Shown here: piece after piece, positions 7,870-64,000 of the stretch
How positions within the stretch are numbered: position 1 is the stretch's first letter
How the letters are laid out: the number at the start of each line of letters is the position of its first letter
Origin: Psammoneis japonica
Lineage: Eukaryota
Direction: 5' to 3'
NCBI GenBank assembly: GCA_008632985.1
Contig: QPGO01000042.1
Coordinates: 310,001 to 374,000 of the forward strand
DNA: 64,000 bases
Position numbers and translations under genes: made by a program
Notes under the pieces: model-generated
Database searches by the model: none
Seen by the model: only the letters and a program-made list of their open reading frames with translations
Told to the model about the DNA's origin: nothing

Positions 7870-7899
7870 GAAAGCTGAAATCCACAACATGACACACCA

Positions 7900-28585: not shown

Positions 28586-28594
28586 CTCCTTGGG

Positions 28595-38953: not shown

Positions 38954-38989
38954 CAAAATTGGTTCTGCCATTGCTGCAAACTTGGTGGC

Positions 38990-40780: not shown

Positions 40781-40905
40781 ATTTTGCAACCTTTGTGATT
40801 TTGAGCCCTTGGCCATTTTGCGCCCTTTGTGATTTTGAACTCTTGGCCATTTTGCCCCATTTGTGATTTTGCGCACCCTTTGCCACCATTTTGCGCCCTT
40901 TGTGA
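40781..40905 (-). repeat. Short third satellite block
   Basis: About seven degenerate units directly after ttcatctccacctgaagaggaac. Confidence 0.85.
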
Positions 40906-41935
40906 TGTTCCACGAGAAGTCATGGTGTGACGATTGTGGCATGGTCGGCTTTCCTGTCAATGTGCTTTGCTGTGGCAGATGCCAATGTGCGCGGGCAAAT
41001 GGCGACAGCGATGACAAGAATGGAGACAAGAGAAAGAAGCATGATGACACTGATTTTGTGTGGCAGCAAGACGTGATGGAAGCACGCGTCAATCAAGATC
41101 GAACTGTGCAATGAAACAAAAACGCAACAAGAATGGCAAGCGACGATGCTGCAACATGCGACGTGTGTTGCGACACATGTCAACAGCATGTCTCTTGAGT
41201 GGCGAACAGACGAGCAACATCATTGATGCGTCACGGTGCTTTGCATTGCTTGCTTCGCACCCATTGATTGACTGTGGCGAGTGTGTGAAAAAATGCCAGA
41301 ACAGCGACCATGCTGAGGTGCACCAGCCGTAGATTTCTGCACAACCGTGCTAAAAAAATTTCCTGCCAAAGGAGGGATGCCTGGGATGAGGCCCAACGCG
41401 GTCCAAAACCCCCATTTTTTACCAAAATGAGTTTCTACCAGCTGGCCGACTGCTGCAACATCACACTGTGTGGTGCTGGTTTCCCGGCCATGGTTTGCAC
41501 AATTGTTGCACAAATCTTTCAGTGTTCAATTGCTGCAGTGCAGTGCTCTCCGTGGAGCTCCTGGCAACATTGTCAGTCCAGCAGAAACAGCACGTGCACT
41601 CCTGCTTAACATGTTTTTAGTGTGCATGTGCATGAAACAGAGAGTGTTTTTGTCTGTGTGTCATTGTTGTCCCTGCTTTGGGTGTGTGTCAGTGATGGCT
41701 CTCACTGCCCAATTGACAGCTGTCATCTGTCTTTGTGCGTCATTGCGTCTGTTTGTCATTCTCTGTTCTGTCTCATGCGAAAACCTGCACAGGCAATCAG
41801 TGCAGCACCGGCGCTCGCTCAGCGCTCACAGATCCTGCACCGGCACTCATTGCGCTCATTCATTCATTGAACGATCACATGATGAGCAACCCGTTTGACA
41901 TGTGCAGCCTGTGGAATTGTCGCCGCCCTTCTGTG
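40906..41935. repeat. Partial copy of the unclassified repeat (homologous to ~47595-48600 and ~16720-17100)
   Basis: Shared stretches from gatgttccacgagaagtca to gatgagcaacccgtttgac. Confidence 0.85.
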
Positions 41936-44479
41936 AATCATCCCAAGAGATGTCTGGTGTCAATTTCAAGAAGGGACAACCCGAATTTTCTGTTTGTTTT
42001 GGTCAACTGGTGCTGTTGGTTGTTGTGCATTTTGTTTTGCCTTTTTCCATTGGCAGCTGATGAATTCTTTGGCTTCATGCTGTTGGCTTTGGGGAGCATT
42101 TGCACTGTTTTGCTGTTGCAGGTGCTCATGAGAGCGCTGCACTGTTTGCTGATGTGGGTGATGACAGCCTTGCAAGTTTTGTTTGTTTGTGCCATTCAAC
42201 CTTTTGACAGTTGTGTGTTTTGTTTTGTCTTGTTCCATTGGCAACTGTTTGAAGTGCGGTTTCCGGCACGGGCAGGAGTGGACGGAGCATCATCTTTGTC
42301 CATCTTTGGGAGGGTCAGGGGGATCTTTGCTGGTGGGGCTGGCCTGCGGCATTGGAGAGATTGTCATGGTGACAAGAACGCAGCACAAAACACACGCAGA
42401 ATTCCACATGTGGAAACCATTGATGTGAAGCTGTGCAGAAAAGTGGCTCATAAATTAACAAATTTGTGGCTTGCAGGCAACAGGCCTGCTTGCCATTTCA
42501 TCTCCACCTGAAGAGGAAATTGCAGATGATCTTTCCGTTGGAACAATTTTGGATCGCTGAAACTGCACCCGACAACCCACTGCTGAAGATGGTGGCGAAC
42601 TCATTTTGACATGCCTGAAAGCTGTGTCAATGAAGAAGACATCAAATTTGTTTGTTCTTCAGATTCTAAGTCAGACAATGTGTGTCAAGTTTGAACGTGG
42701 GTGCTGTTTCACCTGTCAAGGGAGAGCAATCTGATCTGCCTCCAACAGCGCACAAGCAACATTGTCAAAACCTCGTTGCCGGCATTGTTTGCGCGCAAGT
42801 GCGAGCCATCTCTTTTTTTTTTTCCGAGCTGCTGTCTCTGTCTTGATCCCAATCATTTGCACGGGCGTCTTGTGTCTTTACAAAGTTGCATTTGCAATGG
42901 AGCGACAAGAACAAGACAAGCCATTGCACCAATGTTTGTCAAATCACAAGTGCACGAGTGTTGCCATGAATCTGTCATCATTTGATTTTTTTCCTTCATT
43001 GGAGAGTCGGATTGGTTGCATTGCCACAAGGAGAAAACGGACGGCACTTTTCTGAAGAAGATCTTCATTTGTTTCTTGATTGCATGCAGGACAAGTGCTT
43101 GATGGAATCAACACAAAACCGTCCAACGTGGCATGTGCACAATGACTTTGGGAAAGATGTGAAGATGACATTTGGCGAGGCCCTTGCAGAGGTGTGGAAA
43201 GTGGCAAAAGACAAGATGAAAGGGTGTGGAGCGCGGGTGCAGAAAATGATTGGGAAGAGTTTTGATGAAATCGATGATCCCATTGAAGACCTTCTTCTCT
43301 TGCACATGGGTGTTGACCTGCTTGGCTCGCTGTGGCCAGCTCTGCCATTTGGCACAAGACTTGATCAATCTGTGCTTCATTCACCAAGGCCAGCTGGAGA
43401 CTGCCCTCGATTGAAGGCGCCACTTTGTTGGAGTGGAAGGCATGTTGTTTGGAGCCGCACGCATCATTTTCAACCTCATCATCCTTCCATTGTGGTGCGC
43501 ATGATGCATCTTGTTGTTTCATTGTTTTTTACAATGTCACATGATTGAATTCTCATGTTTGATTTCCATGGGTTTTTCATGGTCAAGGACCCTGCTAGAG
43601 TGCGGCATGCCCTGACAAGAAAGTTTGCTTTTTCAATTGTGGTGCATGTGAACATCACACGTCCATTTGTTGAGTCTAACAAAGAAGCAGATTTTTTGCT
43701 GAAGTCTTCTGGATTTCTGCAGGCAATCTCAGTGCAGTCTGCACGTCACCCCCAAAGGTGGAAAAAGCACGAAGAACCTGTTCTGCACAGAGTCTCACTC
43801 GCGCGATGTCGCGCATGAACATCCCAGATTTTCTTGCAGCAGGAGCTTGTTTTCTGAACAACAAGCAGTTTTCAGGTGAGCAGAAGCAGATTGAACAGAT
43901 TTTGAGCCATTTGGCAAAAAACGTCATGATGTCGGAAGTTGAGTTTTTCGGTGACACTTGTGAATGGTCTTGACAACCAACTCCTTCAGCATTGATGCAG
44001 TCTTCTTCTCATTTGCTTTTCCGGTGAGTCTGTGAAACATCTCAGTCCATGAGATCATCTCAAAGTGCCTGTGTTTAGCACATTGTGCGTCATTTGTTCA
44101 TCGTCTCTTTTCTCTCGTTCTGCCTGCAGCACACACTGCACTGTTGTTTCCAAATCATTGGTTTGCACAATCTGCCGGAAACACATCCTCTTGGCATCTC
44201 ATGCATTGGCACCGGCACCTGCACAAAACAGCAAATGTGAAAGTCTGCCACACACTGCACTTTTGCTTTGCTGATCTGTTTCGCCCAGTCAACTGCATCC
44301 ACTTTTCCCATGCAAAGTCTTTGACATCAGAAAAAGTCTGCTTCCAGCTCGTGGTCATCTCAATGCATGGTGTGCAATGAAGTGTCGTCCGAGTGTGCAT
44401 CTGCTGAGTGATCGTTGAAGTCAGTGGCCAACTCCTCATCAAACCTTTCACCGAAAACAGTGGTTTCTTGCGGACTCGA

Positions 44480-47400
44480 GGACCTGATGCATTGCTCTCA
44501 CTCACAGCAACTCCACGGCCTCTTCCTCGGGGATGTTGCTCTCTGTAGATTCGACGGTGTCAACTGAAGCAGTGCCGGTGGGGTTCGTCAAGCCTGGTGC
44601 ATTGTTCTCACTCGTTTCCAATGCAGCAGCCTCTTGCTCAGCGTTGTCGCTCTTTGTGGGCTCGACGGCATCAACTGAAACAGCACTGGTGGGCTTCGTC
44701 AAGACTGACTCTGGCTGATCCTTCTCAGTCACATCAGCAGCCATCGTCACGGTCGATGCCACAAATGCCAAAGCCTTCCTCTTGTTTGATTCCTTCCCAG
44801 AAACGGGAGTGGCGTTGTAATTGGCAACAAGACGCGAGCAATGGACCTCGCAAGTGCCATTTTTTGGTTCTCTTTGCCACGAGTGCTCCCTTCCAATTCA
44901 GCTCTGGCTGTTGCAGCTGCTGCACGCTCCTCGTCAGAGACCTGGTGCTTTTCGCGAATGGTCCAAATTTTCTGACTCTTGGCTGCCCTCGCCAAGTGCT
45001 TTTCTGCCGTTGCACAGCACTGACATTTCCAGCAAAGCAGGGCCCGGCCACACAACTCGTTGAACCAATCGTTGTGTTTGTCACCTCTTTTTTGGATGTC
45101 TCGACTTTCTTTGGTTGACTTTTTGCGAATTCCGCGGCTCTGTTGGTCTTGCTCCTTGGCGGCCCTTTTCCTCTTCCGTTCTGAATGAAGAGCATGGTCA
45201 GTGGCAAGTTCTTTTTGTCGACGGTCCTGGTGGTGCCGTTGCTTGATGCGTTCCTTGTTCTGCACAATGATGAGACCAAGTGTTGCGACTTCTGTCTCAC
45301 GCACTTGCCTCGCGTGTTCACGATGATGCTCGACCCTCCCTTCTAGTGCATCGAGGCGTTCCTGCTGCTCACCGGAAAGGCTGCTCAAGCTTTGAAGGTG
45401 CGCCAACTCGCAACGCTCCATTTTGCGATGGCATCGCTGACAAACAAAATGGCCAGCACGGACCCCTGTCATTGACCCTGCGCAAACCATGGTCCGAGAA
45501 TCATTGTCCACATTTTCGTCATCAGCCGAACAAGGGCACACTTCGGCGGGAATGTCAGCAATGGCGGGGGGGNNNNNNNNNGGGGGCAGGGCAGCTCCAG
45601 TGAAGACTCCAAGGTGAGATTGGAACAGAGTCGCCATCCGTTGCCAGCTTGAGGTCATGAGCTTCCAACAGCTTGCAAAAGTTCCGTTCGGATGGAGACA
45701 TGCCGAGCCACAACGCATCGTGGCAATTGAGGTTCAATTGTTTGGAGACCAGCAATGCACCCTCCTTTGGTCCAGCAAAGTGTCCTTTGGGCATGGCAAG
45801 GAGTTGCGCCTTGTAGAAGCAATCGTCTTTGCACTTGTCAGTGTCTCATTTGCTGCAACTCATCAGGAACGACTGGAGAAGCTTGTGTTGATTCTGCACG
45901 TTTTCCGCCGAGACGATTCCGGACGCCGACAGTAATTCTAAAAACGATCGATGCACTTTGACAGAATTAAAACGATGTTGGTGCAACGTCTCTTCGGCAA
46001 AAGCGACAAAGAAAGATGACGTGATGATGATGCGGTGTTTCGTCGATCAAGAACAGACAAGACAAAGTGCGCGGTTGGGCAAGACATCAATGCTCTTGTC
46101 CACGTCGACCGTCTCTTGGAACCATTTGCCATGTTTTTCTCCAAAGTGGCAACAGTGCTCCGCTCAATGACAATGACATTGTTGGTCGGCATTGACTGCA
46201 GAAGCCGTTGCAGGACGTCACGTGCACCTTTTGCGAGAGATTCCGTAGTTGGATGTACGCAGTGACTCTTGTTTGCCCCCTGCAACTTCGTCATGACGTT
46301 TCCAATGACCTTTTTGTTTTCATTTGTCATCGGCTTGGCCAAAGACGTCTTCAACTCGACAAGCGCTTCTTTCAATTGGAGCTCACGTGGACTCGTCTTG
46401 ATGGAGTCTTCGAAACCCCGCAGTGATGTTCCCCAACAGACTCCATGGCTCGATTGTTTGTGATGAAGCCTCCCTTGGGTGGTGGAGGCAAGAGCATGCG
46501 CTGAAGAAACTCGTTGGTCTTGGACATTTCTTGTGATTGGCGCGGGAGTGTTGGCCAAGAAAACTGAAAGAATGTCCCACTTGGTGGAATGGGCACATCA
46601 ACCATGAGTGCCTTGGCAGCGTCGTCGATGGGAGCCGGTGCCAGGGTGTCCAGGACTTTGGACAATGGCAATGCGACAAGCCTCTCTCCGACGGGTCCCC
46701 ACTTGCATTCAAACAGAGATGACGCCACTGCTTCTGCCACCTGCATCATGATGAGATCGTCAATCTCCTGTTGATGATCTGGATGCACGGCGAGGCCATC
46801 CAGTTCCAGAGCTTTGATGTCGGAGAAGTTGCTTGGGAAGGAGCTCGTAAATCCGTTTTTGATCTAAAAGGCGTGCGGCGAATTGAATGTCTGTTTGTTG
46901 TTCGATGCGTGTGCGGCAGAGGATGACGCTCCAATCTTGATTTGTCCATCGGCTCGGACAATGACGTAGATGCCCATCTCATCATCTCCCAAGGCGACTG
47001 GCTGCCACCATTCCTCGTGAAGCTTTCCCTTGTTGTTCTCGCATTCTTGTCACAGGTGTTGCACCAAGCGTTGTTTGAGCAGCTCAGTTTTGTTGGTCGT
47101 GACGGATGTCGATCTGTCGCCACCTGTGGCAACACGGGCCGCAAGTGAAGCCGTTCAGACAAATCTTGAATCGCATCGTTCAGCTCCGTGCAGGTCTTGG
47201 GAGTCTTTGGAGAGAACTTTTTGCCTTCCCATTCGACCACTGGTTTCTTCTTCACCACCTTGAAGTTGGCAACAGCGGCAAGAGTGCACAGCACAATGAA
47301 GGTGCGGTGCAGAGCGCGCAGCATTGTCAATCTGCATCGATGCGAAGAACTCGACAAAGCAGTTGGACGAAATGTGACAACAATGATCGGCACATGTGGC

Positions 47401-48749
47401 GTCATGGTTCTTTGCTTGCCTTGTTGCTGTTGCAGTGGTGACAGCTGCGGCAAACAAATGGTTGTGATGTCGATTCACAGGAGCAGCAGCCGTCTGAAAC
47501 TTGGTGTGCGGAGTCGTAACGGCTCTCCACAAAAGAGAGCAACAAGTCGATTCAACCTGCGGAAAGCAGATGGAAGCACGGTGTGGTTGTCAGTGATGTT
47601 CCACGAGAAGTCACGGTGCAATGATTACGGCATGGTCGGCTTTCCTGTCAATGTGCTTTGATTGCTGTGGCAGACGCCAATGTGCACGGGCAAATGGCAA
47701 CAGCGACAATGAGAATGGAGATGAGAGAAAGAAGCGTGATGACATTGATTTTGCATGGCAGCAAGCACGTGATGGAAGTGCGCATCAATCAAGATCAAAC
47801 TGTGCAACGAACCAAAAACGCAACAAGAACGGCAAGCGACGATGCTGCAACCATGCGACGTGTGTTGCGATGCACGTCAACAGCATGTCTCTTGAGTGGC
47901 GAATGGACGAGCGTCATCGTTGATGCACCATGGTGCTTTGCACTGCTTGCTTCGCACCTCGTTGATTGATTGTGGCGAGTGTGCGAAAAAAATGCCAGAA
48001 CGGTGACAGTGCTGAGGTGCGCCAGCTGTAGATTTCTACACAACCGCACTAAAAAAAATTTCCCGCCAAAGGAGGGATGCTGGGATGAGGCCCAACGCGG
48101 TCCAAAACCCCATTTTTCGCCAAAATGAGTTTCCACTGGCCCCAGCAGCCGACTGCTGTAACATCACACTGTGCAACACTGGTTTCCCGGCTGTGGTTTG
48201 CACAATTGTCATGCAAATCTTTCAGTGTTTGATTGCTGCAATGCAGTGCGCGCCGCGGAGCTCCTGGCAACATCGTCAGTCCGGCAGAAACAGCACGTGC
48301 ACTCCTGCTTGACATGTTTTTGGTGTGCATCTGCATGAAACAGAGAACATTTTTGTCTGCGCATCATTGTTGTCCCTGCATCAGGTGTGCATCAGTGATG
48401 GCTGCAGCCCAGTCGATGGCCGTCATCTGTCTTGGTGTGTCATGACGTCTGCTCGCCGCTCTCTGTTCTGACTCGCGCGAAAACCTGCGCAGCACCGGCA
48501 CTTGCATGCACCGGCGCTCATCATTCATTCATTGAACGATCACACCCACGATGAGCAACCCGTTTGACGTGTGCAGCCTGTGGAATGATCACCTCCCTTC
48601 TGCAGCATGATTGCACGCCATTTGTGACAGTCAGTTAAGCTTGGACACCATGTCTGTCCTTCTGTCTCAATTTTAGCTTATAATAAATAAATTTTTGGCA
48701 TGCAGATAACAGGCCTGCTCGCCATTCATCTCCACCTGAAGAGGAAATC
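44480..48749 (-). mobile_element. Unclassified repeat, copy B, with a disrupted minus-strand ORF containing a GIY..KIG motif, coiled coil and Cys-rich region
   Basis: Reverse complement of 46921-46977 reads MGIYVIVRADGQIKIGASS; ORF fragments 44747-47453; ends at gaggaaatc directly before tRNA-Met. Left boundary uncertain. Confidence 0.65.
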
Positions 48750-48822
48750 GCTCCTTTAGCTCAGTAGGTAGAGCGTCGGTCTCATAATCCGGAGGTCGCC
48801 AGTTCGATCCTGGCAGGGAGCA
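48750..48822 (+). tRNA. tRNA-Met (CAT), elongator type
   Basis: GCTCCTT/AGGGAGC acceptor stem, TAGCTCAGTAGGTAGAGC D arm, CTCATAA anticodon loop, GTTCGATCC T loop; T6 run ~8 bp downstream. Confidence 0.95.
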
Positions 48823-49237
48823 TGCCTGAATTTTTGTTCCTGCATGGTACAGTGCAGTGCAGACTGGAGGTGTCAGCCTTGTGTGCTGCACACCGCACAA
48901 GTAACGTTATTTCAAAAACACACTCCTTTTATTACCCACAAAGAGCTTGTTGAACACATCTGGAAGTCACCAGTTCGTCGATCTGGCAGGGAGCAACCAG
49001 GGTGACTCCTCGTACGGTATGTAGGTAGTATGTACCATCGCTCGTAGATCGTCTGTCGTCGTTCGTACGGTAAAAGTTCAAAACAAACTCGTTTCACAGA
49101 ACAAAGTAACAAGATTCACAGACAGGGCGTGCTTTTTGTTACTGTATGTCATGCTTTACATAATAAGCAGACGTTTGCCTAGATCGCTGATCGATAGAAC
49201 AGCAGCCTACTGTCGTTGCTAAGCTAAGGTAAAAGAA

Positions 49238-50297
49238 TCAAATGTCTTTCTTACTTCCAAATCCCATGGGAGAAGACGACATTTCCATCTCGTGTGGGCT
49301 ACTGAATCCGTCATCCCCATCGCCGTCAAGAAGACCACGCTGTTCGCTCGCGGTCGCGCTTTGCCCGCCCGTTCCACCGCCCTGACCGTTCCTGCGGGCA
49401 CTCATGTTAGCATTCCACTGGGCTGCCAGCATTGTCAAGCGTTTCTTTGCATTTTCGCCCATTTCTGGAAAAGGGTAGTCACTTAAAGGATTAGCCGGAG
49501 GAAGCGTACAGCTGTACAGTCGATTCAGCACTGACAAAGCAATTCGCGGTACTTACCTGACAATTTATCCATAATGGGAGGACCATCAGCACTTGTTCGT
49601 CTCTGACCGGTTACTGACGAGGCGCTAACTTGTCCTTGACGCGCTGAATGATTCGTAGGCCTCCCACCGACTGTGCGGGGCCTATTCCGTGATAGATGAG
49701 CGAACTCCGGATTATTTGCAAGCTCCTTTGTTGGCCAAGCATCGCAAGCAGAAAGGTGTAGGAAATAGTACAAGAGAGAAGGGTGAGAAAAATCGAGCAA
49801 GGGAGGCAGTCGCGGTAAATTCAATAAGATTGGAATAGGTAACGAGGCCTACTTGCCTGAGAAAAGAGTTCGTCCTGCAGCATGCGGGCCAACCTTTCGT
49901 CAGCATCCACGCCACCTGTACTAGGAATCTTATATCCTGGTATGCGTAGGAAATCCGGCGGAAGTTCCGTTGGGGTTCCGCGACCCTTTGGTTTGGGGGC
50001 AGTCTCAGGTCGTGACTGTGATGAACTGTGGCTGCTACGTTCTCGTTCTTCCTCTTCCAGCTGCCTCGCCAATTCTTCGTCCATACTGGTAGAGGCATTC
50101 GTTCCGGACTTCTCGCCATTCTTGAGACGATCGAGAAGAACTTGGGGGTCGCCATCGCCATGCCCGAGCACAGTCTCGACAGTATTCTCCATGTGTCCTT
50201 CGTGGTGCCTCAAAACAGCATCCAAACTCTCTTCGTTCCATGGTGACCCGAACATGGACGTCAACGTGGCCAGCGCTTCCTCATACGTGATCGACAT
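49238..50297 (-). CDS. CUE (ubiquitin-binding) domain protein; exons 50297-49857, 49725-49557, 49464-49238
   Basis: N-terminus EEALATLTSMF..LDAVLRHHEGHMENTVETVL; DEELARQL and DERLARMLQDELF motifs; frame-preserving splice sites. Confidence 0.85.
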
Positions 50298-50952
50298 GTT
50301 CCTTCTCTTCTTGCGATAGGCTCTCAGCACAGATATTGCTTGGCACTTCTAACGCACTCCTTTAATTATCTTCTTACGATAAGCTCTCCGCAGAGCCGAG
50401 TTCCCTGACACACTTCTAACGAAGTCCTTGTGTATGGTACTAACTCTCAGTCGCATTCACGCCTTTTTCATACTTCGACCGAGTGAAGCATGATGATGAT
50501 GTTGCTCGCTTTTCACGTCGAAGTTGGTCGAAGCTCGAACCGCAACCTGCCTTGCGCTCGAAGGATCGCGCGCTCGAGCAAGGAAGCGAGCACGCATGCC
50601 AAATCAATCGTCATTATTACGTCATCATCCTTCACGCGCACGAACGCACGCACATCAAACCACAGGATCAAGGATCACACAAAGCGCAATGGTCGACAAC
50701 ACATTGCATTCAAGCATCATCGTTCTCTCCGCATTTCGTGTTTCGTCGCTGTTCACCACCATCTTTACCCTATCGTGACCGAAATTTGCGAGCTGCTGAG
50801 CGTTTCTCTGTTACTTTTTCTATTTTCTTCTAAAATCTTCGCGTGATTTTTTGTGTTGCGGGCGGTGTATTGGATTATCTATCTTCCATTCAAGCTCGAC
50901 ATTTTATGGATCCTTGATCACTTATTGTCGGGTTCAAAGACTGTAGCAAAGA

Positions 50953-52421
50953 ATGCCTTCTTCATCTTCATCATCAGAAATAGCTTCAGAGAAAACCGAG
51001 ATCCTAAGCGAAGAAAACAGCGCGGTGCTGGCAAGTGCGAGGAACGACGATAATGCTTCCAATGAATCTAACGACGCTGCTCCCACTGCACCCAAAGACA
51101 ATATCGTATCCCGAGGTGATATTGGCCAATCGTCGGTTCATTCCATTGATGATGATGTTAGTATTACAGAGAGACGAGACTTTAGAGGGCTGACAGCAAA
51201 GAGTATGCACTCTTTCTCCGACTTCGTCAATGATCACCTCGTCGCTCTTCGATACAGTACTTTCGCGTCGATTGCTCTTCTTACGGCTTATTCGATTTCG
51301 AAAACTCCGCTTCTCTTCCGATATAAAACAGTGTCTGATATCCCTGGTAAGTGACTGTTTGCGATGCATACAAAGATCGTGTTGCTTAGCTAGCTTTTAG
51401 TTCAAAACATCCTTCCTATCTTCTCACTACAGGTTCTCTTTTCACATCTCGAAAGACTCTTCATGGGAGATTGGTTCGTGTGATTGAAGAAGATAGTGAC
51501 TTTGTGAAAGGTATGCTCAATGCTCTTTCTCATTTGTACGAGACTTTTGGCCACACGACTCTGAAACTTTCCGAAAATTAACATGGCTTTTTCCTGTTTC
51601 AGGTGACAAAGAAAAGCCGATTATTTGTCTTGTACGGCATGTTTCGCCGATAGGCAGACTATTGAGTAGAAATGCGTTCGATTTCTTCCACCGGGCGAGT
51701 CCAGCCGCGACGATTGGGAAACGAATGGATGATGAAGCTGAGTTACTCAAAGTGGAAATTGGTAGGTTAGCTCAACCGTTCTTACAATAACTCCGATAAT
51801 GTTCGACCTAAACTGGCAGCATCATTTCCTGTTGTATGCTTGTTCCTTCCGACAACAGCTGGAGTCACTTCGCCTCCATTCTACATTGCGCCATCTCATA
51901 TGGAGCAACCAGGAGAGTGGATACGGCGTTTAGCAGAGCAGCGTGCATGTGTAGCTCTGAAGTTACTTGCCAGGCGAGTCAAGACCCGAGAAACGACAAT
52001 GGCAAAACGCGACGCTGCCGCAGCCTTTCCGGAACTTCGTGATGTCTTTGAGAAGGAAAGTATCGATCCTCATGATCAGATTGCGGTATGTCGGATGGGG
52101 TACCGAAGTGGGTTTAGTTTGTTTCAAACCGACGTGGCAATGTCTATGGTGCGAAGCGGACGCGCCGTTGTCTCGTCCAACTTGTACGTTCCGGATGAAT
52201 CAAGGATCACTGTAGACGCCACCACTCGTCTCGAGGACTTGAAATCAGATGCCGCATACTTGGAAAAGGTTGCTAATGGAGAATTCGAAGCTGCAAACAA
52301 GTACTTGGGTATGTGGGCTGATCCAAAAATTCGAGACGATCACAAACACACGGTAGACGAAGCCAATTTTCAAGCGACCGCGAATATTTTTCAAAGACTG
52401 TGGAGATGGCTGAGAGGATAG
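50953..52421 (+). CDS. C3orf33-like / SNase-fold membrane-anchored protein; exons 50953-51346, 51433-51510, 51603-51761, 51859-52421
   Basis: TM segment, then RYKTVSDIP..RKTLHGRLVRV; C-terminal EAANKYLGMW; GT-AG introns keep the frame. Confidence 0.7.
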
Positions 52422-52516
52422 TTTAAGATGAAATTGAAGGTAGTAATGCAGTGTCCATTTCTCTATATTCAATCAATACCAGGTACGGTTCTTGTCGAGC
52501 GAAGAGCGAAGCTTCT

Positions 52517-53008
52517 TTACGCGCCGCTGGTTCCCTTGTACGTCATGAGCCAGTAGAGAAAGACCATGACACCAACGACAAACGCAACCATATAACACAT
52601 GTGCTTTGCTCCACCGCTCTCTAGCATAGTTCCGATGCGCTGAAGAGAGCCGGTCAACATGTCTCTCGTGGCCGAGAAAGCATCTCCCATATCGTCCAGC
52701 GATCTGTTTTGCTCTCGAACTTCGTTTCCAATATCGATCGTAAGTCCTTTGAGGAGAGCTACTTGGTCTCCAAGCTCTGAGAGGCGTTCATTGTTCTGTT
52801 GCTCCATAATGTTAGCATTCGTGTCGCTGACACTCATTCCGCCACGGCTGCTCCTCCCGCTCTCGAGACGCGACGGGTCATAGCCGCTGCTACTTCCTCG
52901 TTTTCCGTACATATTGCTGTCGTTATTCCCAAAGTGGCCGTTTCCGCTGTTCGGTGTGCTCCCAGTACTTCCGCTTCGACGTTGGTGCATTGGCAGGGAC
53001 GATGACAT
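52517..53008 (-). CDS. BET1: BET1-like Qc-SNARE
   Basis: MEQQNNERLSEL..LKGLTIDIGNEVREQN SNARE motif plus C-terminal TM. Confidence 0.88.
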   Translation of the reverse strand: MSSSLPMHQRRSGSTGSTPNSGNGHFGNNDSNMYGKRGSSSGYDPSRLESGRSSRGGMSVSDTNANIMEQQNNERLSELGDQVALLKGLTIDIGNEVREQNRSLDDMGDAFSATRDMLTGSLQRIGTMLESGGAKHMCYMVAFVVGVMVFLYWLMTYKGTSGA

Positions 53009-53800
53009 TCAAGAATGACCGTTGAAACAAAAAACACCTCAAGCGGTGTTTCTACTCGTGGTTGCTAAGCGATACGAATACGAATCAATCTCCTTCTTCT
53101 TCAGCTCGATATCTTTTGCCAAGCCGTTTGTTTAAAATGCAATTCGGTGTACCGGTAGCTCTACAGTATTGAAAATACAGTAAACGCGAACGGCAATGAC
53201 GATTGCGCAGTGCTCTTTGCTTTTTCTTGTTGCTTGCTGTGTGCTGTGCTGTGCGAAAGTGCTGTGCAGGCGGTGTGTGTGCAGGTGCAGGGCGACGACG
53301 GAAATCGTTTCTCGTCGTTCACTCTTGTGTCCGTCGCAGGACAGACTGCGAATTTTGCGGCGAATTTGCTTCTCTGACATCACCCCATGTTTACGGAGAA
53401 ACCAGTACAGTTTCTACGGAAGATTCTTACCTCAACATCTACATATTGACATATTAAATACTGTTTACAGTATTCATTGGGTCGAATTAATAAATTATGA
53501 CTTGAATACCTGTATAAGATTTTTAGCTTTGTTTTGAATGAAGTCAATCGTTTCTACACGAGGATGTACATACAGGCAAGTTCAACTGGTTGACACCACA
53601 ACAGGCGCGTCGATAAACGAACGCAAATTCAGCACTCTTCCCGAACAAGTTGTTGCTGCCTCGGTTATTGGAATCATTTTCTGTGCAGTTGGGAGGAGGG
53701 GAACTCGGCTTGTCGGTTCTTCAAGGAGGTCATCTGCAGCAAACAAGCTTAAATTTGCTGCTGTGTATCACTGTCACGTTTTGTTGTAAAAATTGCAAAG

Positions 53801-54809
<1,009 letters not shown>

Positions 54810-55461
54810 CAAATGCTAAACGATTTAGGATGCAAGGGCGCGGCTTATGTAGCCCGTTATTCACACTGTACATCATCATGGTTTTAACAAACGCAATCGC
54901 ACGTACACCTTTTGTGCGCATGACATGTCTTTCTTGAGCTCTAGTAGGGAGCGTCAACCTATCTGCCACCTACAGATGGATTCGATGAGTAGTAGAAACT
55001 ACACACCGCGTTCTCGCTTTAACGGCAAGCCAGCACGAGGGCCCTAGATGCGCACAAGATAACTTCTCGAGTTCACTTTGGAACCACTCTTATCCTTGAG
55101 AAGATCGTCGAAGGACAACACGTTGACGGCCTCGACCGCCCGCAGGCGCGACATCCAACACGTCTGGTCGAGGGTCGGAGGTTCCGACAAGTTACGCGTA
55201 CAATTATCTTTGCACTAATGCCACGCTTGTTTGATTGAGCATCTATATCTTGCTATAGTAGAAGCGGATAATAGATAGTTTGCAACGATACGTTCTATAG
55301 TTCAACTTTAGCCCCAATACAGTACCGTACAGAAATAGAACTTGAGCCGTGCAAAGAAACGTGTGGCACAGCAAGGCAACAGAGAGAAGAGACGTTTGGT
55401 CAAGACTGGGATTGAAGAGGGCCAACAACTGCCGTGTAGGTATGGAAGAAGAAACCGACTG

Positions 55462-56636
55462 TTATGTAGCCTGTACACGTATAGTTTCATCCCCTGAATT
55501 CCGAATGGACGTTTGTTTTCTCACACCTCGTACTGTTATTTCCATCTTTCTAACCGAGTTTGTTTTCAATCCCTTTTTGTCAATGCTTGGTCGCACATAT
55601 TCATCCAAGTACTCGTTCAGGCGCTCGATAAAGTATGGTCTTACTTGCGAGTGAACATTGTTGTGCCCCATCCCTTCGATATAGATAGGTTTCGTCCGGC
55701 TACCGACTGGAATCGCTTCATACAAACTTTTGGAATGATGAAAAGGAACAATCTGGTCGTCTGATCCATGAATCAGAACAACCGGACACGCCATCATTGG
55801 ACACAAGTCAATGTTGGGAAACTTGTCCCCGTATAAAGTACAGCCAGAGTCTAACACTATTCTGTATACGGAGAGAAAGGGTGCGTGGAGAATCAAGCCT
55901 CCCACCGGGCCTTCTTTTGAATCATCTCTGGATTCGCTTGCTGAGCCCGCCGCAAGATGACACGAGGGCCCTGATCCCAACGATCTCCCAAATAGCACAA
56001 TGTTGCTAGCAGGAATACTCAAAGTATTGCGAAGAAAGCCGTAGGCGGCGTCAATATCAGCATAGCAATGTTCCTCGGAGGGAGGTCCTGTTTTCGAAAC
56101 GATTCGGGGCAAACGAGGAAGCAAGAGAGAAGAGAACGGGCGACAGCAACGAAGGTAGTGAAAGCGAAAAAGAGACGAACGATGGTTAGAGATAAAGTAT
56201 CAACAAAACTCAAATCGTTTGTACTCAAAGAAAGCTCAATCACAACGAACAGCATACACAGAGCCGTTCACGATTCACGGGTACGCTCCGCTCTCCACTC
56301 ACCCTGATCATAAGCCATACCATACCCCGTGTAATCGTATGCGAATATATTCACTTTCAGCATTTTGCTCAGGTATTTGCACCACGGATATATACTTCCC
56401 AAGTCTTCAGCATTCGCGTGCGAGTAAAGAACTGTTATGCCTGGTCCAGGGCCGTTCTTCATCAAATCGTCCCGTGTGACAGACGCCGAACTTACTCCAT
56501 CAGGAGTTTCGCGATAGCTTATGTAAAACGCTGGTATCCTAGACCCCCTTTCTGTCTTTATCCATACGATCTTGTGCTCCCTCAGCTTGGTGGGCGGAGG
56601 GGGCTGGAACAGCAAAGTGCTGACAGTATCACCCAT
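55462..56636 (-). CDS. ABHD17-like alpha/beta hydrolase; exons 56636-56303, 56087-55462
   Basis: LYSHANAEDLG, YDYTGYG, GRSLGSGP nucleophile motif, IHGSDDQIV, GHNN. Confidence 0.92.
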
Positions 56637-57568
56637 TGGTTCGCAGGACGGCAACCACTTCAACTCTTGCATAAATGGTTCTTCCACTAACTCTCACACT
56701 CTTAATTGCTAAATCTCTCTATAGAACGACAGGGTCTTCGTTCATTGCCGGTTATCGTCGTTGTTGTTGACTCCTTCTCTCTCTGTCGATGCCGTTCCCC
56801 ACGCTCAACGTGCTTGTGCAACAACACCACCGCAAACATTCCGCCCGCGGTGGCAGCACCCTGGTGAAGCGGGACTTAATATTATATAGAATGCCTTATA
56901 TAAATTTATGTCACATCCGTTGGATGATTAGTTTGAATTACATTAATTCTCGTAGGTTGATGATTTACGTAAGCTCAACGGACGATGTTTGAATTCCAGC
57001 GCGTTCCGTTATTTGCCCGCCGAATCTGAAATATTTGTCAATATGGTGAAACTAAAGGAACGATGATATATTTGAGTTGAACGGCAATAAGATGAAATTG
57101 GACAATTTTGTTATTTAGATTTCTATCCATAGCGACCCCTCAACGGCTTTACTATTGAAATTTTGTGTATATTATATGCTTTGAGCATGGATATCAAATG
57201 AACGGAAGTGTTGCGCCCACAAAATCACTACTACAACTCTCGAGAAAAGGAAGTCTCGAGTTGTCTCGTGACTGTGTTGCAGGACTTGCTGCCTGTTGGA
57301 AAGGCTTGTGGTGATCGAGAGTTGAGTCACGTTGGCAAACAGCTGGAGCAATGATGCATGGCGCATCATGATGGTCCTTCTTCAGCTGCAAGAGGAACTG
57401 CAAGATTGCCGTACCGGAGGTATTCCGGTCACTTCGTATGTATTGTAAAAGGAAAACCTAACTAGAGCCAAAGCTAGAGAGAAACTAACAAGGACGACTT
57501 TCCTAGGAGGAATGCTACAGTCCATACAGGTATCGTCATTGCTGCTTGTCTGGTCGTCAACCTCTACT

Positions 57569-58342
57569 TTATAGATCGTCCGTAAGATCCAAAACAAGAT
57601 GCTCTTCCCCTGGTTTGAATGCTGGTTTCCCCAGATAAGGGCAGCTGGCGCACCGGAAAGCATCGCCCAGTCCACATTTTCCACAAGAGCTCGTGGGAAC
57701 CTGCTTTGGCTTGGATTTATCAGCTTCTCCACTCTCGCGTTCTGCCCTGCCACAGGTGCAGTTATCGCATGCAGTTCTCCCACCGCAATCGTCCAGAGCC
57801 GATTTCACCGTGTCCGAAATCTCGGGAGGCGCTGCCAAAACTCCTTGCCCTTCCTCATCTAACAAGCCGTCTTCGTCGATTAAATCGTCCTCGTCTAGAC
57901 CATTCAACACCACAACCGGTTTAGGTTTCAAGTTGAGAGGAGCGGCGGTCGATTTCGCCTTTTGCTTTCTCGTTGCTGTAACCACCGTCTTTTCATTTTC
58001 TCGCCTTTCGGAGGCTCCCGAAAGTCCCGCCAGGAGAAACGAGGTATGGACGGGCTGCAAGTCGACTGCCGGGCTCTTTCCCAAGACATGAATTGAAACA
58101 GTCGCTCCGGGACTCAATTTCGAAACCCAACCCGATAGCGCCATGGGGTCATAACGAGCCGAAAGATCCTCTATCATTACGAACACCTCCATTTTATCGC
58201 ATGAATCAGGTGTAACATCCGAAAGTCCAGCCGAAACGTCTGCTGATGAGGCGACGGATACAACGCGAGCGCCGTCCGATGGCATATCAGCGGCAGCCTT
58301 GGAGGCCGATCCGAGGCAAATGCGCAGGTATGAGGACGACAT
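57569..58342 (-). CDS. DRE2: Anamorsin / Dre2 (CIAPIN1) Fe-S assembly protein
   Basis: [10 protein letters not shown] linker; [13 protein letters not shown] and [29 protein letters not shown] motifs. Confidence 0.95.
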
Positions 58343-58700
58343 TGCTCGATAAGTTTATGAGATTACAGTCAGTTGCAACCCTCGTGAGGTTTCTGAGGAG
58401 TCCTTCTTTGCTGTTTCTTCGCTGTCTTCGTTGCTTTCTCCGACACTGAGTTCGGATTCGCGGCTTCAGCTTGCTTGAGGGAGTTTTGAGAGATTTCGAA
58501 AGAACGCGACCCCTCCAAAAATGGGCCGTAAAATCAACGTGGATTTTGTACTGACGAAAAGATACACCCAACCCCGACACCCGACACCCGAAAAAAAAAA
58601 AACGTGCCGCCGACAGTCAATCACGACGGATTGTGTTGGGTGTAGACTACTGTAGTCTCCCTCTCTAGTTCTAGCTACTAGTGAAAGCTTTCAAGGAAAT

Positions 58701-59675
58701 ATGCCGGCTTACACTCCTTCACGACTTCCAAGGCCGTCAACACCACCCGGTGTTCCTCCACCCAACGCGCAAAGGCCCAAGTCCAAGTTGTCCTTTGGCG
58801 TTGTCTGTTCCAGTAACATCAATCGTTCCATGGAGGCACATGTCGTGTTGGGAAATGCAGGTAAGCTCATTCTCGTTTTGACCGCAGCTCGCATGAGTTG
58901 TGCCTTTGATAATATCTTACTTTGTGGTGTTGACATACCTGCTGCTTCTTAGGCTTGACTGTGGAAAGTTATGGGACGGGGACGCAAGTTCGGTGTGTTA
59001 TTCTTCTGCTTCGTGGTATTTTCGTGTGTATTATGCTGCCGTTCTCACTTTCCGTGTCATTCTCACATCAATGCTTCTTAGCCTTCCCGGAAGGAGCGCG
59101 ATGGAGCCTCGAATCTTCAAATTCGGTACACCATACGAAGAGATGTACAACAGTATGAATGCAACTCCCGAAGACGCTGCTTTCTTTGCGCGAAATGGAG
59201 TCTCTCAGCTGTGTAGAAGAGGAGCAGCTGTCAAGGTCAGTGAGATGAATTATAGCGGGATTTGCTTTTCTTTGTTTTCATTTTCAAACACAACTCACCT
59301 TCTGTGAAATCCTTTTCTAATCGCGTTGCAATGTAGACAGCGCCACAACGTTGGCAAGATATGCCTTCAGAGTTTATTGCTACGCACGATGTAGTCATTG
59401 CCTTTGAAGAGAGAATTTTCGATGCAGTTGTCGAGGACTTACAGTTGAGAGAACCTACTGAAAACTTTGAACCTATTCATGTTGTTTGTCTAGATACCAA
59501 AGATAACCCACATGAAGCGCAGTTGCAGGGGCGAGTCGCATTGGAATTATGTTGGTTGCTGGAAGCAGAAGCGGATGATTTGGTGGGACAGGCGCCAGCC
59601 GTTGTAGATGCATTTCAGCGAGAGCGAATGACACACACGCCCATTAAGGTCTTGTATCAGTTGTGCTACTTGTAA
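58701..59675 (+). CDS. SSU72: SSU72 RNA Pol II CTD phosphatase; exons 58701-58860, 58953-58992, 59082-59235, 59337-59675
   Basis: VCSSNINRSMEAH catalytic motif, SYGTGTQVRLPG, PQRWQ, FEERIFD, DTKDNPHEA. Confidence 0.95.
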
Positions 59676-60523
59676 CAAGGAGACTCATTCAACACTTTTG
59701 AATCGATATCCTTTTGCCCGGATCATTGTGGTTGTGGCACAGGAACTCTAGACGATTCGTAGAAAGCAGATAAGAAAATGGTTTTGTTTAGGACGGGTAC
59801 TTTGTTAATCCAACTTTCAAAGTGGCTCAGCGTTGGACGGCAGAAAGTTACCGTGCAAGAGAACGTTTCGACTGCTCGTTTAGCCGAAGAAAATAGACTA
59901 GTTACCGGCACAAAATCTCCACAATGCCTAGATTGATGAGGATAAAAAGTTTAGCCTCCCGGCACACATGTAGGTAGTGACTAATGAACCCCTGGTAACA
60001 TTAAGTAATCGCTCAGACAAAAGCCTCCCTTCTAAGGAACCTGAACAGACACGTGCACTCCCAGCTTTTCACCCTTGATGATCACGCTACAGACAGGTGA
60101 AGTCCATGGTTGTGATCTAATGCGCCCTCCTTTTTCAGAATTGAGCTGATCTCACTTCCCATTTTCAAGTGTGTGCCAGGCACTACCACATAGTGCTTCA
60201 TGTTCTCTCTCACACACAAGCAACATGAGCTCTTTGTTCTGCAGCATCTCACTGTTTGCGTGTTCTTCCAAGAGCAACACACAAAAAAGAAGAAAAGAAG
60301 TGTGCCCATGCTGACTTCATCACAGCCATGCAAAAGTCTTGGCATTTGGCACATGTTGAGGATCTTCTTCAAGCATGGTCAGTTTGACCAGTTCAAGAGG
60401 ATTGCCTCTGCTTCTGCCAACACAGGTGCTCTGGTGATCCAGCCCCGGGTACAAAAGTCCATTGTTGCTGCTTTCATCATTAAAAAATCTTGATCATCCA
60501 GCAATGGCATGTGCAACATGCGT

Positions 60524-63500
60524 TGTCATGTACGTATTATATATGTATATCTATATATTAAATAAAAGTATATTTCAATCGTACGTCAATCGTGGGTTCG
60601 TACGAAGTACAGATCAGTCACACAGAAGTGATCGGATGTCGAGAATCGCAAATGCGATCGTACGATGATGTTGACATCTTATGTGTCAACATCAATCGTA
60701 TCCGGACAATCTGTCGTCACGATCATATTCTCCGAAAGGCCTTTTGTCTGTAGGAGCAGCACAAAAGGTTTAGGCTGTTGAGAACCCGTTCGGAGAAACC
60801 CAAAATGATTGCGCAGAAACAATTCTCACAATTTTCACCTTTTGAACTTCGTTCTACTTTCGTTTACACTCGTTCTTCGAGCACAGTGCATTGTGTATAC
60901 ACACCACAGAAGGTAATAAGTTCAAGATGAAGCTTTCACCTCATGTGACCAATGCCAAAACTTCGTCAAGGCAGGAGAAAATCGTCCCTCAACCGCTGGA
61001 ATCGAACTCCGAGCCAAAGAGCCTCAAACCGAGCCAGTGCCTCAAGATGGAGCAACGTTTTCATCCCCGAGAAGAAGGACAGCCGCACCTGCACCATCAA
61101 TGTTGAGTGCTACAAGAAACAAGGTGTCCCCAAGTTCATCGAATTTCTCAAGAGCTGCGATCAACTTCTGGTGGGCCAGAATGTCAGGAAGCAATCTGAC
61201 AAGTTTCGTCTCATGCGCATGTTACTCCAAGGAGACGCTCTACGTGCTTTCGAGAATGCGGCAGCGAACCTTGAAGACGAATCTGTGGAAGGAAGCTTCA
61301 AGAAATGCCTGCAACATCTCACGAGGCATGTGTTTCCCAAGAATGCACTTTCGGTGCAGAAACGTCATTTGCATCGTGATCTCAAGAAGCCGGAGTCCAT
61401 GAAAGTGCGCGAAATTGCTGCTTGGGTCCAGGAAGTCAACGAAGACCTCAAGTTCTATCCTCCCTTTGGGAAGGAACAGAAGATCGAGGACGACGAGCTC
61501 AAGGACATCCTCTTCAACCTTGCACCTCGAAAGTGGCAGCGTCAGTCGACCGTCCAGGGTTTCGAAATTTTGAAACACACCTGTGACGAGTTGGTTGAGT
61601 TCTTGGAGCGCCTGGAGGTCGCAGAAGACACATTTGATGGCATTCATGCCAAGGCTGATGGCAGTGGCGGTGCTGCATCAAAAGCCAAGAGTGGTTCCCA
61701 ACGTGGTTCCAAAAATGGTCACCAACATGGTGCCGAAAAATCTCAGTCCGAGAAGTGGTGCATTTTGTGCGAGAAATCCACTCACAACACGGACAAGTGC
61801 TGGTCGATCAAAAGACTTGTGAAAGAACGCCGTGGGAACTGTGAACCCGACCCGAAACGGCGCCGTTCAAATGGCAATCGCACGTGGTCTCGTCGCGACA
61901 ACGACAACGCCGCTCGCAAAGAAGAGTTGAATGCCACGGCGATCCAAGCAGTTCAAAAAATGCTCAAAGCGAGTTCTTCGAACAATGACAAAAAACACAA
62001 GAGCAAAGACCATGATTCTGACACCCTTGACGAGGAAAATTGTCAGTTTGAAAAAATGACGCGCAGTCATTCTGAGGAATGACTTGCACCGCAAGAGGAG
62101 TCTTGCGCTCTGCTGGACATTGGGAAGCCCAGAAAAAGGGCCAAAGTAATTCACACTAGTCCAGCAGTCGTCGCCCATGTGAATGCTTCATTGGGTGAGG
62201 CGAAAAACAAGCCTCCACGCATTCTCCTCGACAGCGGAACATCGTCAACCACAATTTTGCGCAAATTCACGCGGAAACTCAGAACAAAAACATCCGCCAC
62301 CAAACTCTGGGAAACCAAAGGAGGGCTCTTCACGACTGATGGTCGATGTAAGATCCAATTCTCCTTGCCCGAATTTGACAAACATGAGATGATTGAAACA
62401 ACGGCACATGTTGACAACTCCCCTTCTTCTTCGAGTCATTGTGACATGATCATGGGACGCGACTTAATGTCAAGTCTTGGGGACAACATTGGACTTCTCG
62501 AATGAAGAGATTAAATGGGGAAGATGCAACTGCTCCCATGAAGAATGTTGACACACTCTTCGATGCCGATGTTTTTAAGTTGATTGCCGATCACATTGAG
62601 GAATCTCATGCAGTGATTGGTCTTGATGACAGGGTCAATCGGATCCTTGACTCAGACTGTCACGCTGCAAACCTCAATGATGTGACCGCAGCAGCCACTC
62701 ATCTAACTCCTGAAGAGCAGAAGCAGCTGAACTTCCTCTTAAAAAGATTTGAAAACCTTTTCGATGGTTCTCTGGGCAAGTGGACCGGGAAACCGGTGGA
62801 TTTAAAGTTGAAATCGGGCATGAGTCCGTGTCGTGCCAAACCATTTCCCGCACCACAAGCCTTGGAGGCGACCACTCGCAAAGAGGTTGAAAGACTGTGC
62901 AAGTTGAAAGTCTCAAGAAAAACAAACTGTTCTGAATGGGCGGCTCCAACCTTTGTTCAACCCAAGAAAAATGGCAGAGTTCGGTTCTTGTCCGACTTTC
63001 GTGAGCCAAGTGAGAGGTCAATTCGTGCTCCGTTTCCTCTGCCCAATGTTCAGGATGTGCTGCAGAAGCTCGAAGGCTTCATGTGTGCAACGTCCCTGGA
63101 TTTAAACATGGGACACTGTCACATCGAATTGACGCCGCGCGCACGTCACTTGTGCACGATCGTCATGCCTTGGGGCAAATGTGAGTGCTGTGGACTCCCG
63201 ATGGGAATCTGTGGAGCTCCAGATGTTTTCCAAGAGCACATGAGTGAGCTCATGGCAGGTCTGGAGTTCGTCAGAACTCACATTGACGACATGTTGTGTC
63301 TTGCAAAAGGCGATTTTCAAGACCACCTCAAGAAGCTTGAAACGGTGTTCTTGCACCTGGAACAAGCCGGATTGAAGGTCAACGCCGAGAAGCCCTTTTT
63401 CGCCAAACCCGAAGCAGACCATCCAGGCTTTCATGTCACCCGCAAGGGCATCAGCCCAATTCCAAAAAAAACAGAAGCGATTCACGCGATCGCAACTCCT

Positions 63501-64000
63501 GAAACTCGCAAGGAATTGCGGCGCTTTGTCGGTGTGATCAACTGCTGTCGAGACATGTGGCCTCGACGATCTCATGTTTCAGCTCCTTCAGCCAAACTCA
63601 CTTCTACCCAAGTAAAGTGGCAATGGACCGAAACAGAACAAAAAGCCTTCGAAAACATGAAGCGCATCATCTCCAAAGATGTGCTGTCATCATACCCGAA
63701 TTTTAACGCACCCTTTGAGATGTGTGCCGATGCCAGTAATTCTCAATTGGGGGCGGTTGTTACTCAGAAAAACCGACCAATTGCCTTCTACAGCCGCAAG
63801 CTGAATGGAGCGCAAACGCGTTATGCTACAACAGAAAAAGAACTATTGTCCATAGTGGAGACGTTAAAAGAGTTCCGCAATATACTGTTTGGCCAACAGA
63901 TAAATATATATACGGATCACAAAAATCTCACACACAAAAATTTCACAACGGACAGAGTCATGCGTTGGCGTCTAATAAAATAGAAGAATACAGTCCCAAA
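60524..64000 (+). mobile_element. Ty3/Gypsy LTR retrotransposon, 5' part (putative LTR ~60524-60908, gag, protease, RT, RNase H)
   Basis: gag with CILC..H..C knuckle (60952-62082); ILLDSGTS protease; RT WAAPTF..SDFR..LDLNMG..THIDD; RNase H ADAS..IAFYSRKL..TEKELL..YTDHKNL. LTR limits inferred only. Confidence 0.92.

Follow-up and report, generated by a model that had tools for sequence, protein, structure and literature searches.

A half-mutated retrotransposon copy in a diatom: sharp borders of TpA loss within a single Ty3/gypsy-type element

The closest described counterpart of the DNA analysed here comes from the chlorarachniophyte Bigelowiella natans. According to the main text of a recent preprint, A:T-to-G:C changes arose de novo in mutation-accumulation lines of this organism, at TpA alone and on either strand, the targets being two silent integrated viral inserts (giant virus or virophage DNA), 25 and 186 kb long (Mettrop et al., bioRxiv 10.64898/2026.01.13.699255). 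An ADAT2-like adenine deaminase is put forward there as the candidate enzyme, and the same footprint, depleted in TpA and enriched in CpA and TpG, is also reported in sequences bearing reverse transcriptase. Diatoms, borders and flanking bases, including any bias of TA loss by the 3' neighbour, are not mentioned in the main text of that preprint. Here we describe a 64,000-nt stretch of DNA from Psammoneis japonica (contig QPGO01000042.1, positions 310,001 to 374,000; hereafter the window), at the end of which (window positions 60524–64000, + strand) lies part of a probable Ty3/gypsy-type long terminal repeat (LTR) retrotransposon that is nearly devoid of TpA (TA) in its middle and TA-normal on both sides. 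In the assembled sequence this half-mutated copy is real and its limits are well defined, and it adds an unusually informative example of the TpA-erasing process at work in this diatom.

The likeness to B. natans lies in the change itself (A:T to G:C at TpA, with TpG or CpA as the product depending on the strand) and in its confinement to certain regions inside a normal genome. The two cases differ in several respects, as far as the main text of the preprint describes them. A chlorarachniophyte belongs to another supergroup than the diatom; the targets here are retrotransposons and satellites, with a TA observed/expected ratio (o/e) of about 0.03 over 47 kb as against a Rho of 0.45 in the nucleocytoplasmic large DNA virus (NCLDV) region; the border described here lies within one element of 5 kb, as against regions of 25–186 kb there; and de novo events were shown there and are inferred here. 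In open-access papers and bioRxiv we found no report of TpA-specific hypermutation in diatoms, and the 2026 B. natans preprint is the only account of such a process that we found in print. The writing of A:T-to-G:C changes at TpA in chosen chromosomal stretches opposes the usual GC-to-AT mutation bias, and diatoms are both major primary producers and genetically manipulable. Provided that the copy is neither a recombinant nor a mosaic made by the assembly, the edges of the tract may show how far a little-known defence by DNA mutation reaches.

Several other mutators invite comparison. Repeat-induced point mutation (RIP) of Neurospora and other ascomycetes turns CpA into TpA, which raises TA, and needs duplicated sequence, of which it hits every copy longer than a certain threshold. 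Like RIP, the process in the diatom is a dinucleotide-specific transition mutator that works in place and on both strands, leaves sharp-edged tracts and kills coding capacity. However, its chemistry is the opposite, as TA falls to an o/e of 0.08 from a TA ancestral state. Moreover, the family of the element numbers about 100–700 copies, yet TA is kept in 83–98% of its depth at six or more sites and the LTR is unmutated; the length limit of RIP is near the LTR length here (about 370–390 nt), which weakens the comparison as far as duplication is concerned. APOBEC3G and AID are cytosine deaminases that change C to T and are not specific for TpA; APOBEC3G acts on one cDNA strand, and the tracts of AID somatic hypermutation start shortly downstream of the promoter and run for 1–2 kb. 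The diatom process shares with them the hypermutation of a retroelement, presumably driven by a deaminase, and the tract, starting just past the LTR, has a shape like that of AID tracts; it differs in that A is changed to G, on both strands and specifically at TpA. ADAR disfavours U on the 3' side of its target, whereas TAT is the best target here. In addition, ADAR works on RNA, so that a retro-copied edit would lie on one strand, while both strands of chromosomal DNA are affected here; RNA editing of the ADAR type followed by retro-copying was considered and ruled out, since both products occur. In the preprint on B. natans, ADAR hyper-editing of double-stranded RNA is described as converting A to I (read as G), preferentially where U or T precedes the target (bioRxiv 10.64898/2026.01.13.699255).

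Our assignments are based on open reading frame (ORF) translations, Pfam profile searches, protein relatives, dinucleotide counts and contig depth. The state of other family copies was taken from the contigs of a public sequencing run with the same organism label (X1); of the other two runs of that study, X2 was matched by one contig and X3 by none. Within the mutated tract (60918–63604) only 14 TA are found in 2,687 nt (o/e 0.08). The candidate LTR on its 5' side contains 28 TA in the 387 nt of 60531–60917 (o/e 0.80), and the region on its 3' side, 63605–64000, contains 23 TA in 396 nt (o/e 0.74). When TA was compared with CA plus TG, both contrasts with the tract were significant by Fisher's test (P-value = 6e-16 for the LTR and 9e-12 for the RNase H part). 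Judging from the ratio in a neighbouring gene island (520 TA among 2,055 TA, CA and TG sites), about 116 of the 460 such sites in the tract would be expected to be TA, which means that about 100 TA steps were changed. The contrast between the putative LTR, whose first 85 nt are TATA-rich, and the tract had been pointed out in an initial annotation made from the sequence alone, as had the retention of CpG, and both observations hold: 142 CpG are present in the tract (o/e 0.86).

The edges of the tract are as sharp in the assembled sequence as that annotation had proposed. On the 5' side the border falls within 29 nt (60918–60946), an interval that lies 0–55 nt past the LTR end and holds the ATG of gag at 60928. 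TA is last kept in an easily erased context at 60917 (ATAA), and the first demonstrated change is at 60946–60947, where the window has TG and 89–91% of the family depth has CA. Likelihood alone gives a broad 5' change point (60610–60946); nevertheless, 60610–60917 is set apart from the tract by its counts (11 TA to 49 CA+TG against 14 to 446, P-value = 2.5e-5), and 5 of those 11 TA are in easily mutated contexts. On the 3' side the border falls within 112 nt (63581–63692), between the last demonstrated change at 63580 and the first kept TA in an easily mutated context at 63693 (ATAC); the TA at 63605 (CTAC) and 63613 (GTAA) are in resistant contexts and decide nothing. The maximum likelihood change point lies between 63691 and 63693, with a 2-log-likelihood range of 63580–63761, and the reverse transcriptase (RT)/RNase H frame runs unbroken across the border. 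The TA-poor tract and its edges had been recognized correctly, but the 5' edge belongs at 60918–60946 and not near 61000, and the 3' edge can be placed only within 63581–63692.

The same pattern is seen in the proteins. A consensus was built from 29 relatives that are 53–60% identical to the window protein, and a column was regarded as a conserved Tyr column if at least 80% of the relatives have Tyr. In residues 1–414 of the RT protein, Tyr is kept in none of the 11 conserved Tyr columns (8 are now Cys and 3 His), while the other conserved columns are preserved in 156 of 191 cases. In residues 415–512 Tyr is kept in all three such columns, and 62 of the 72 others are kept. Tyr accounts for 2 of 377 residues in gag, 0 of 140 in protease, 0 of 379 in RT residues 1–379 and 4 of 96 in the RNase H part, compared with 4.0% in the relatives over the same RT columns. 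The eight peptides on which the initial annotation had relied are all present in the translations. Four of them, MCATSLDLNMGHCHIEL, WGKCECC, VRTHIDD and INCCRDMW, correspond to YATSLDLNMGYYHIEL, WGKYEY, AYIDD and NYYRDMW in the consensus of the relatives; the other four (SYPNF, IAFYSRKL, RYATTEKE and IYTDHKN) come from the RNase H region, which does retain its Tyr as had been claimed. The claim that the RT active-site Tyr was destroyed by a TA-to-TG/CA change was also borne out, as AYIDD in the relatives is THIDD here, with the His codon at 63279–63281. A CA/TG-to-TA change reverses 23 of the 44 mismatches that the tract shows at conserved columns, compared with 3 of 44 for mock transitions in other contexts; the substitutions reversible in this way are Tyr to Cys or His, Leu to Ser or Pro, Ile to Val, Lys to Glu, Arg to Gly and Thr to Ala.

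Comparison with other family copies also gave ancestral states. Run X1 has variants at 497 places, 442 of which are transitions; family letters were obtained from 40 of 513 variant places, each with the other letter in at least 83% of the depth. At six or more sites (62830, 63192, 63404, 63424, 63501 and 63580) the window has CA or TG where 83–98% of the family depth has TA. There are 21 sites with a known TA ancestor, of which 12 became TG and 9 CA, in 10 runs as against about 11 expected at random (hand tally); both strands were therefore hit, without long one-strand stretches. The changes are A:T to G:C at TpA. At no fewer than five CA/TG doublets (60946, 62011, 62216, 62340 and 62873) the opposite product is found in 85–98% of the family depth, so that the majority lineage seems to bear fixed TA-loss scars of its own. 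The window copy seems to belong to a different sub-lineage from the family majority. At least eight places among the 40 of 513 are CpG in the family and TG or CA in the window, and one change is off-motif (62833, CA in the family and CG in the window).

Minority letters are found in each of the three parts of the copy: a C at 60715 in the LTR (2%, with T in 98% of the LTR depth), letters of 2–5% of the family depth at 62780, 63393 and 63471 in the tract, and letters of 13–17% at 63708, 63737 and 63815 in the RNase H part. This argues against a collapsed consensus. Among the places listed, non-TA differences from the majority number 17 in the 2,687 nt of the tract, 1 in 394 nt of the LTR and 3 in 396 nt of the RNase H part, and their density is alike across the three parts.

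The segment 60524–64000 represents the 5' two thirds of an LTR retrotransposon and ends before the integrase. Pfam detected RVT_1 (E = 1e-10) followed by RT_RNaseH (2.5e-28) and RT_RNaseH_2 (1.4e-27) in one ORF (62445–63983). In most of the best 120 longer relatives, which are 54–62% identical, rve (PF00665) and PF17921 are located downstream of RNase H; as the integrase follows RNase H in these proteins, the order is that of Ty3/gypsy and unlike that of copia, and assignment of the copy to this type is supported by the protein comparison. No Pfam match was obtained for the gag and protease pieces. The gag region (60928–62082, ORF open from 60949 to 62082 with stop TGA) encodes a CCHC knuckle, CILCEKSTHNTDKC (CX2CX4HX4C), at 61759–61800, and the protease region (62083–62520) encodes LLDSGTSS at about 62224–62247 (DSG at 62230–62238) and IMGRDL. 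The TA-to-TG/CA saturated RT follows at 62445–63580 and, past the 3' border interval, the TA-normal RNase H domain at 63693–64000, where 21 TA are kept, 14 of them in easily mutated contexts. The RNase H frame continues unbroken from RT until a two-base insertion at about 63977 creates a TAG at 63981.

The candidate 5' LTR with its short leader (60524–60917) was delimited by depth. Contig depth in run X1 climbs from about 60 to 24,000–45,000 at about 60530 and drops to about 7,000 past about 60930, and 21 contigs have loose, variable ends at 60890, placing the LTR end at about 60890–60920. The 3' LTR lies beyond the window, and for that reason the 5' LTR is given as a candidate, supported by a depth step of 400- to 700-fold. 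No primer-binding-site match of 8 nt or more was found between 60871–60960 and the tRNA-Met of the window with CCA added, nor did the candidate LTR show a convincing terminal inverted repeat. Summed contig depth is about 60 in the flank, 24,000–45,000 in the LTR and 5,000–12,000 in the interior, suggesting roughly 100–200 interiors and several hundred LTRs. A search of the element against the 64-kb window with blastn and tblastn found only the element itself. Its protein relatives, at most 62% identical for longer and 67% for shorter proteins, are too distant for nucleotide comparison, and so are the 43 loci recovered by a metagenome scan, where identity reaches at best 70% for a short piece and 64% when most of the query is covered.

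Relative to other family copies, the element carries four small insertions, which break gag, protease and the end of RNase H and may represent real decay or run-length errors of the assembly. One base in a C run at 61065 is absent in 58% of the family depth, part of the family depth also lacks one base in the G runs at 62479/62482 and at 62517, and the two bases inserted in A-rich sequence at 63977 are absent in both contigs that cover the place.

The TA that survive are not a random sample. For this comparison, depleted DNA comprised window positions 1000–48100 and 60918–63604, and normal DNA comprised 48636–60006, 60531–60917 and 63605–64000. TTAA accounts for 32 of 138 surviving TA in depleted DNA (tract included) and for 23 of 571 in normal DNA (P-value = 3e-11); in the tract alone it accounts for 6 of 14 (P-value = 2e-5 against normal DNA). 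Conversely, TA preceded by A or followed by T make up 283 of 571 in normal DNA, 11 of 138 in depleted DNA and 1 of 14 in the tract. Such contexts, which are almost never left in mutated DNA, hold 14 of the 23 TA of the RNase H part. Since its surviving TA share the bias found elsewhere, the tract was made by the agent that acted throughout the window, driven to saturation. The preference of this agent with respect to the 3' neighbour of the target A seems to follow TAT > TAC > TAG > TAA.

The remainder of the window indicates how this agent works. Over the whole window the o/e is 1.59 for CA and 1.56 for TG. From about 1 to 48.1 kb, TA has an o/e of about 0.03 and CA+TG of about 1.9, forming one TA-free domain that runs unbroken for about 47 kb; the initial annotation had suggested that the process acts in tracts of a few kb, which does not hold as a general property. 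The domain is saturated up to its edge with the gene island (last TA at 48159, next at 48636). Old depleted DNA contains 124 TA to 10,075 CA+TG and the gene island 520 to 1,535, so the depletion spares the genes and is confined to presumably silent or foreign DNA. An older LTR retrotransposon (40960–48500, + strand) provides a control within the window. Its two LTRs lie at 40960–41800 and 47655–48500, the right one extending to the edge of the TA-free domain. In an alignment of 826 nt they show 87.5% identity and differ by 19 CA/TG doublets, 5 positions with TA against CA or TG, and 31 with CG against CA or TG. Because the LTRs of an element are identical at insertion and these now differ, each must have been hit on its own after integration, and the process therefore works in place. 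The pair offers direct evidence that its TA erasure and CpG decay came after insertion.

Why, then, was only the middle of the younger copy changed? Half-mutation in place is the most likely of several readings, and region-limited targeting is the explanation we prefer, although we would give it somewhat less than an even chance. Under this explanation, a high-copy Ty3/gypsy element of a pennate-type diatom would have inserted into old TA-free DNA about 0.5 kb from the gene island, and its gag-protease-RT segment would afterwards have been saturated by the TpA-to-TpG/CpA mutator that emptied the other repeats of the window. Adenine in DNA would be deaminated to inosine, perhaps by a tRNA-adenosine-deaminase-like or other deaminase, and read as G at the next replication. 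A regional signal, for example a chromatin state or a guide RNA, may direct the enzyme to silent DNA; in this copy it would have covered only the body of the element, from the start of gag to the RT/RNase H junction, letting the LTR and the 3' part escape. The mutator would also read the base 3' of the target A, so that TA in ATA or TAT is erased almost fully and TTAA survives most. A narrower claim, that the mutator was aimed in place with sub-element resolution over the body of this copy and with borders stable within about 30–110 nt, is advanced a shade more tentatively still. Candidate signals could be a guide RNA to which part of the element gives rise, or a chromatin state, linked to transcription or to the bodies of transposable elements, that starts just past the LTR. 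If this is true, the targeting signal has left its natural footprint in the copy, and the surviving TA contexts are a footprint of the site preference of the enzyme.

Region-limited targeting is supported by the action of the process in place and by the sharp, saturated edges found elsewhere in the window, as well as by the minority letters and the similar non-TA divergence of all three parts of the copy, which speak for one lineage. The initial annotation had also considered homology pairing as the source of the borders; this is disfavoured, because the most repeated part of the element (the LTR, at a depth of 24,000–45,000) is the part that was spared, and because most of the family depth keeps TA at the six or more checkable sites, being repeated is insufficient as a trigger. 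A border set by chromatin, the other cause it had suggested, or guided by RNA is possible. A number of observations nevertheless weigh against region-limited targeting. The tract is saturated to both edges beside neighbours that look untouched, and a slow multi-hit process would need identical borders each time. "Untouched" may itself be too strong for the RNase H part, where 4 of 9 conserved-column mismatches fit TA loss and a few hits may have occurred. The 5' border coincides with the LTR/leader–gag junction, as would also be expected of a recombinant or converted copy, and nothing was found to mark the 3' border. The 394-nt LTR is spared although the old flank and the tract on either side of it are mutated, so that spreading chromatin would have to skip it, and in the older elements of the window the LTRs are mutated too. 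No contig among those listed spans either border, and the four small indels in base runs or A-rich sequence are either real or a sign of an error-prone assembly. That this very copy was mutated after its insertion is something we infer. Finally, the base 3' of the target was a poor predictor of the strand that was hit: at unselected sites 8 agree, 5 disagree and 3 tie, and all five doublet sites disagree, though these were chosen for differing from the majority. The 3' base effect is kept here as a survival bias only, and not as a rule for the product.

The copy could instead be recombinant or converted, and its sharp borders would then be crossover points that say nothing about how the mutator is aimed. 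LTR retroelements recombine often during reverse transcription, and RT might have switched templates between co-packaged mutated and intact RNAs, which requires a single switch near 63.6 kb in addition to the normal strand transfers and would leave gag to RT mutated between LTRs and a 3' part that are intact; alternatively, a fully mutated copy may have regained its LTR and 3' part by ectopic recombination or gene conversion, a route that needs two separate events. The passage from saturated to untouched sequence within 29 and 112 nt, and the position of the 5' border (60918–60946) next to the LTR end (60890–60920), fit such an origin well, and donors are plentiful, with about 100–200 interiors and several hundred LTRs by depth and many copies mutated. 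On the other hand, a saturated donor should have lost the TATA-rich promoter in its LTR, a prime target, and would have been hard to transcribe and package unless it was already mosaic. A random LTR donor is unlikely given the C at 60715, where 98% of the LTR depth has T, and the RNase H part likewise carries minority letters (3 sites in 396). Non-TA divergence is no higher in the tract (17/2,687) than outside it (4/790), giving no sign of two ages. Moreover, TA persist at 60896–60917, up to 27 nt past 60890 and beyond the usual length of a primer-binding site, although the LTR end is loosely fixed. Taking both sides together, we regard a recombinant origin as unlikely, while giving it more weight than the two explanations that follow.

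An artificial mosaic, in which parts of different copies of a 100- to 700-copy repeat were joined or gap-filled during assembly, is less probable. The enormous depth of the family (5,000–45,000 against about 60) makes such an error conceivable, as do the N runs at 19265–19329 (65 N) and 45573–45581 (9 N), which suggest a scaffolded and gap-filled assembly; the window may also end near a contig end within the repeat. The four small indels point in the same direction, and only 51% of the sequence words sampled occur in run X1, with no border-spanning contig among those listed, although contigs drop rare variants, which would explain the 51% alone. However, a collapsed consensus should carry majority letters, and the window has letters of 2% of the depth at 60715 and of 13–17% at 63708, 63737 and 63815. 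A mutated LTR would be a unique sequence assembling unaided, leaving the assembler no reason to replace it; the LTR is too short for a misjoin between long overlaps, and the RT/RNase H frame passes the 3' border unbroken. Least probable is APOBEC3-like editing of replication intermediates before integration, in which early conversion to the double-stranded form would protect the LTR and whatever lies beyond a plus-strand primer site inside the element. One border does lie at a replication landmark, the LTR/leader junction, and the drop in mid-pol resembles the drop past the central polypurine tract in APOBEC3G-edited human immunodeficiency virus (HIV). Yet the two strands were hit about equally (12 TG and 9 CA), whereas editing of single-stranded minus-strand cDNA gives one product; no clean polypurine tract is visible at 63581–63692; and both in this window and in B. 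natans the process works on integrated DNA.

These readings differ in what the copy could be used for. If the mosaic is real on single molecules, one element offers a saturated target beside an untouched control, two borders narrow enough for comparison with maps of small RNAs, methylation and histones, and an order of preferred contexts (TAT > TAC > TAG > TAA) to which any candidate deaminase has to conform. A recombinant origin would show instead that mutated copies still contribute to retrotransposition.

Upstream of the element lies a gene island that is TA-normal (48636–60006) and contains genes for tRNA-Met, adenylate kinase (Pfam ADK, E = 1.2e-33), an alpha/beta hydrolase and CIAPIN1 (2e-15). 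The ORF of the adenylate kinase is 77% identical to a protein of Nitzschia inconspicua, and its further named matches are all from diatoms, mostly pennate. The tRNA-Met gene (48750–48822) is located on the TA-normal side, about 250 nt from the sharp edge at which the TA-free domain gives way to the island.

Between the island and the element is a short old flank (60007–60523) with 7 TA in 517 nt (o/e 0.19), a CG o/e of 0.26 and a depth of 50–64. At 60089 in this single-copy flank the window has TA and run X1 has TG at the full depth of 60.3, and a second difference is found at 60096. The difference at 60089 could be a strain or allele change made by the same mutator, or an assembly error. Modified bases read as C or G, or a sequencing artefact, were rejected as a source of the TA-poor sequence, as the TA-poor single-copy flank is one clean X1 contig with a depth of about 60 and no CA/TG alternatives listed.

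Two further repeats of the window were noted. A copia-type element (ORFs at 26978–33088, + strand; RVT_2, E = 5e-11) is TA-depleted with CpG retained; its consecutive ORFs abut at single stop codons, and a pair of 187-nt repeats (26394–26580 and 33077–33263) lies 6,683 nt apart. As with the gypsy tract, its mutation looks recent. A satellite with a 17-nt period (units like CAAAGGGTGCAAAATCA) occupies 19400–24000 on the + strand and occurs in the opposite orientation at 38340–38980 and 40760–40910; it has an AT skew of about 0.6 and is almost TA-free in both orientations.

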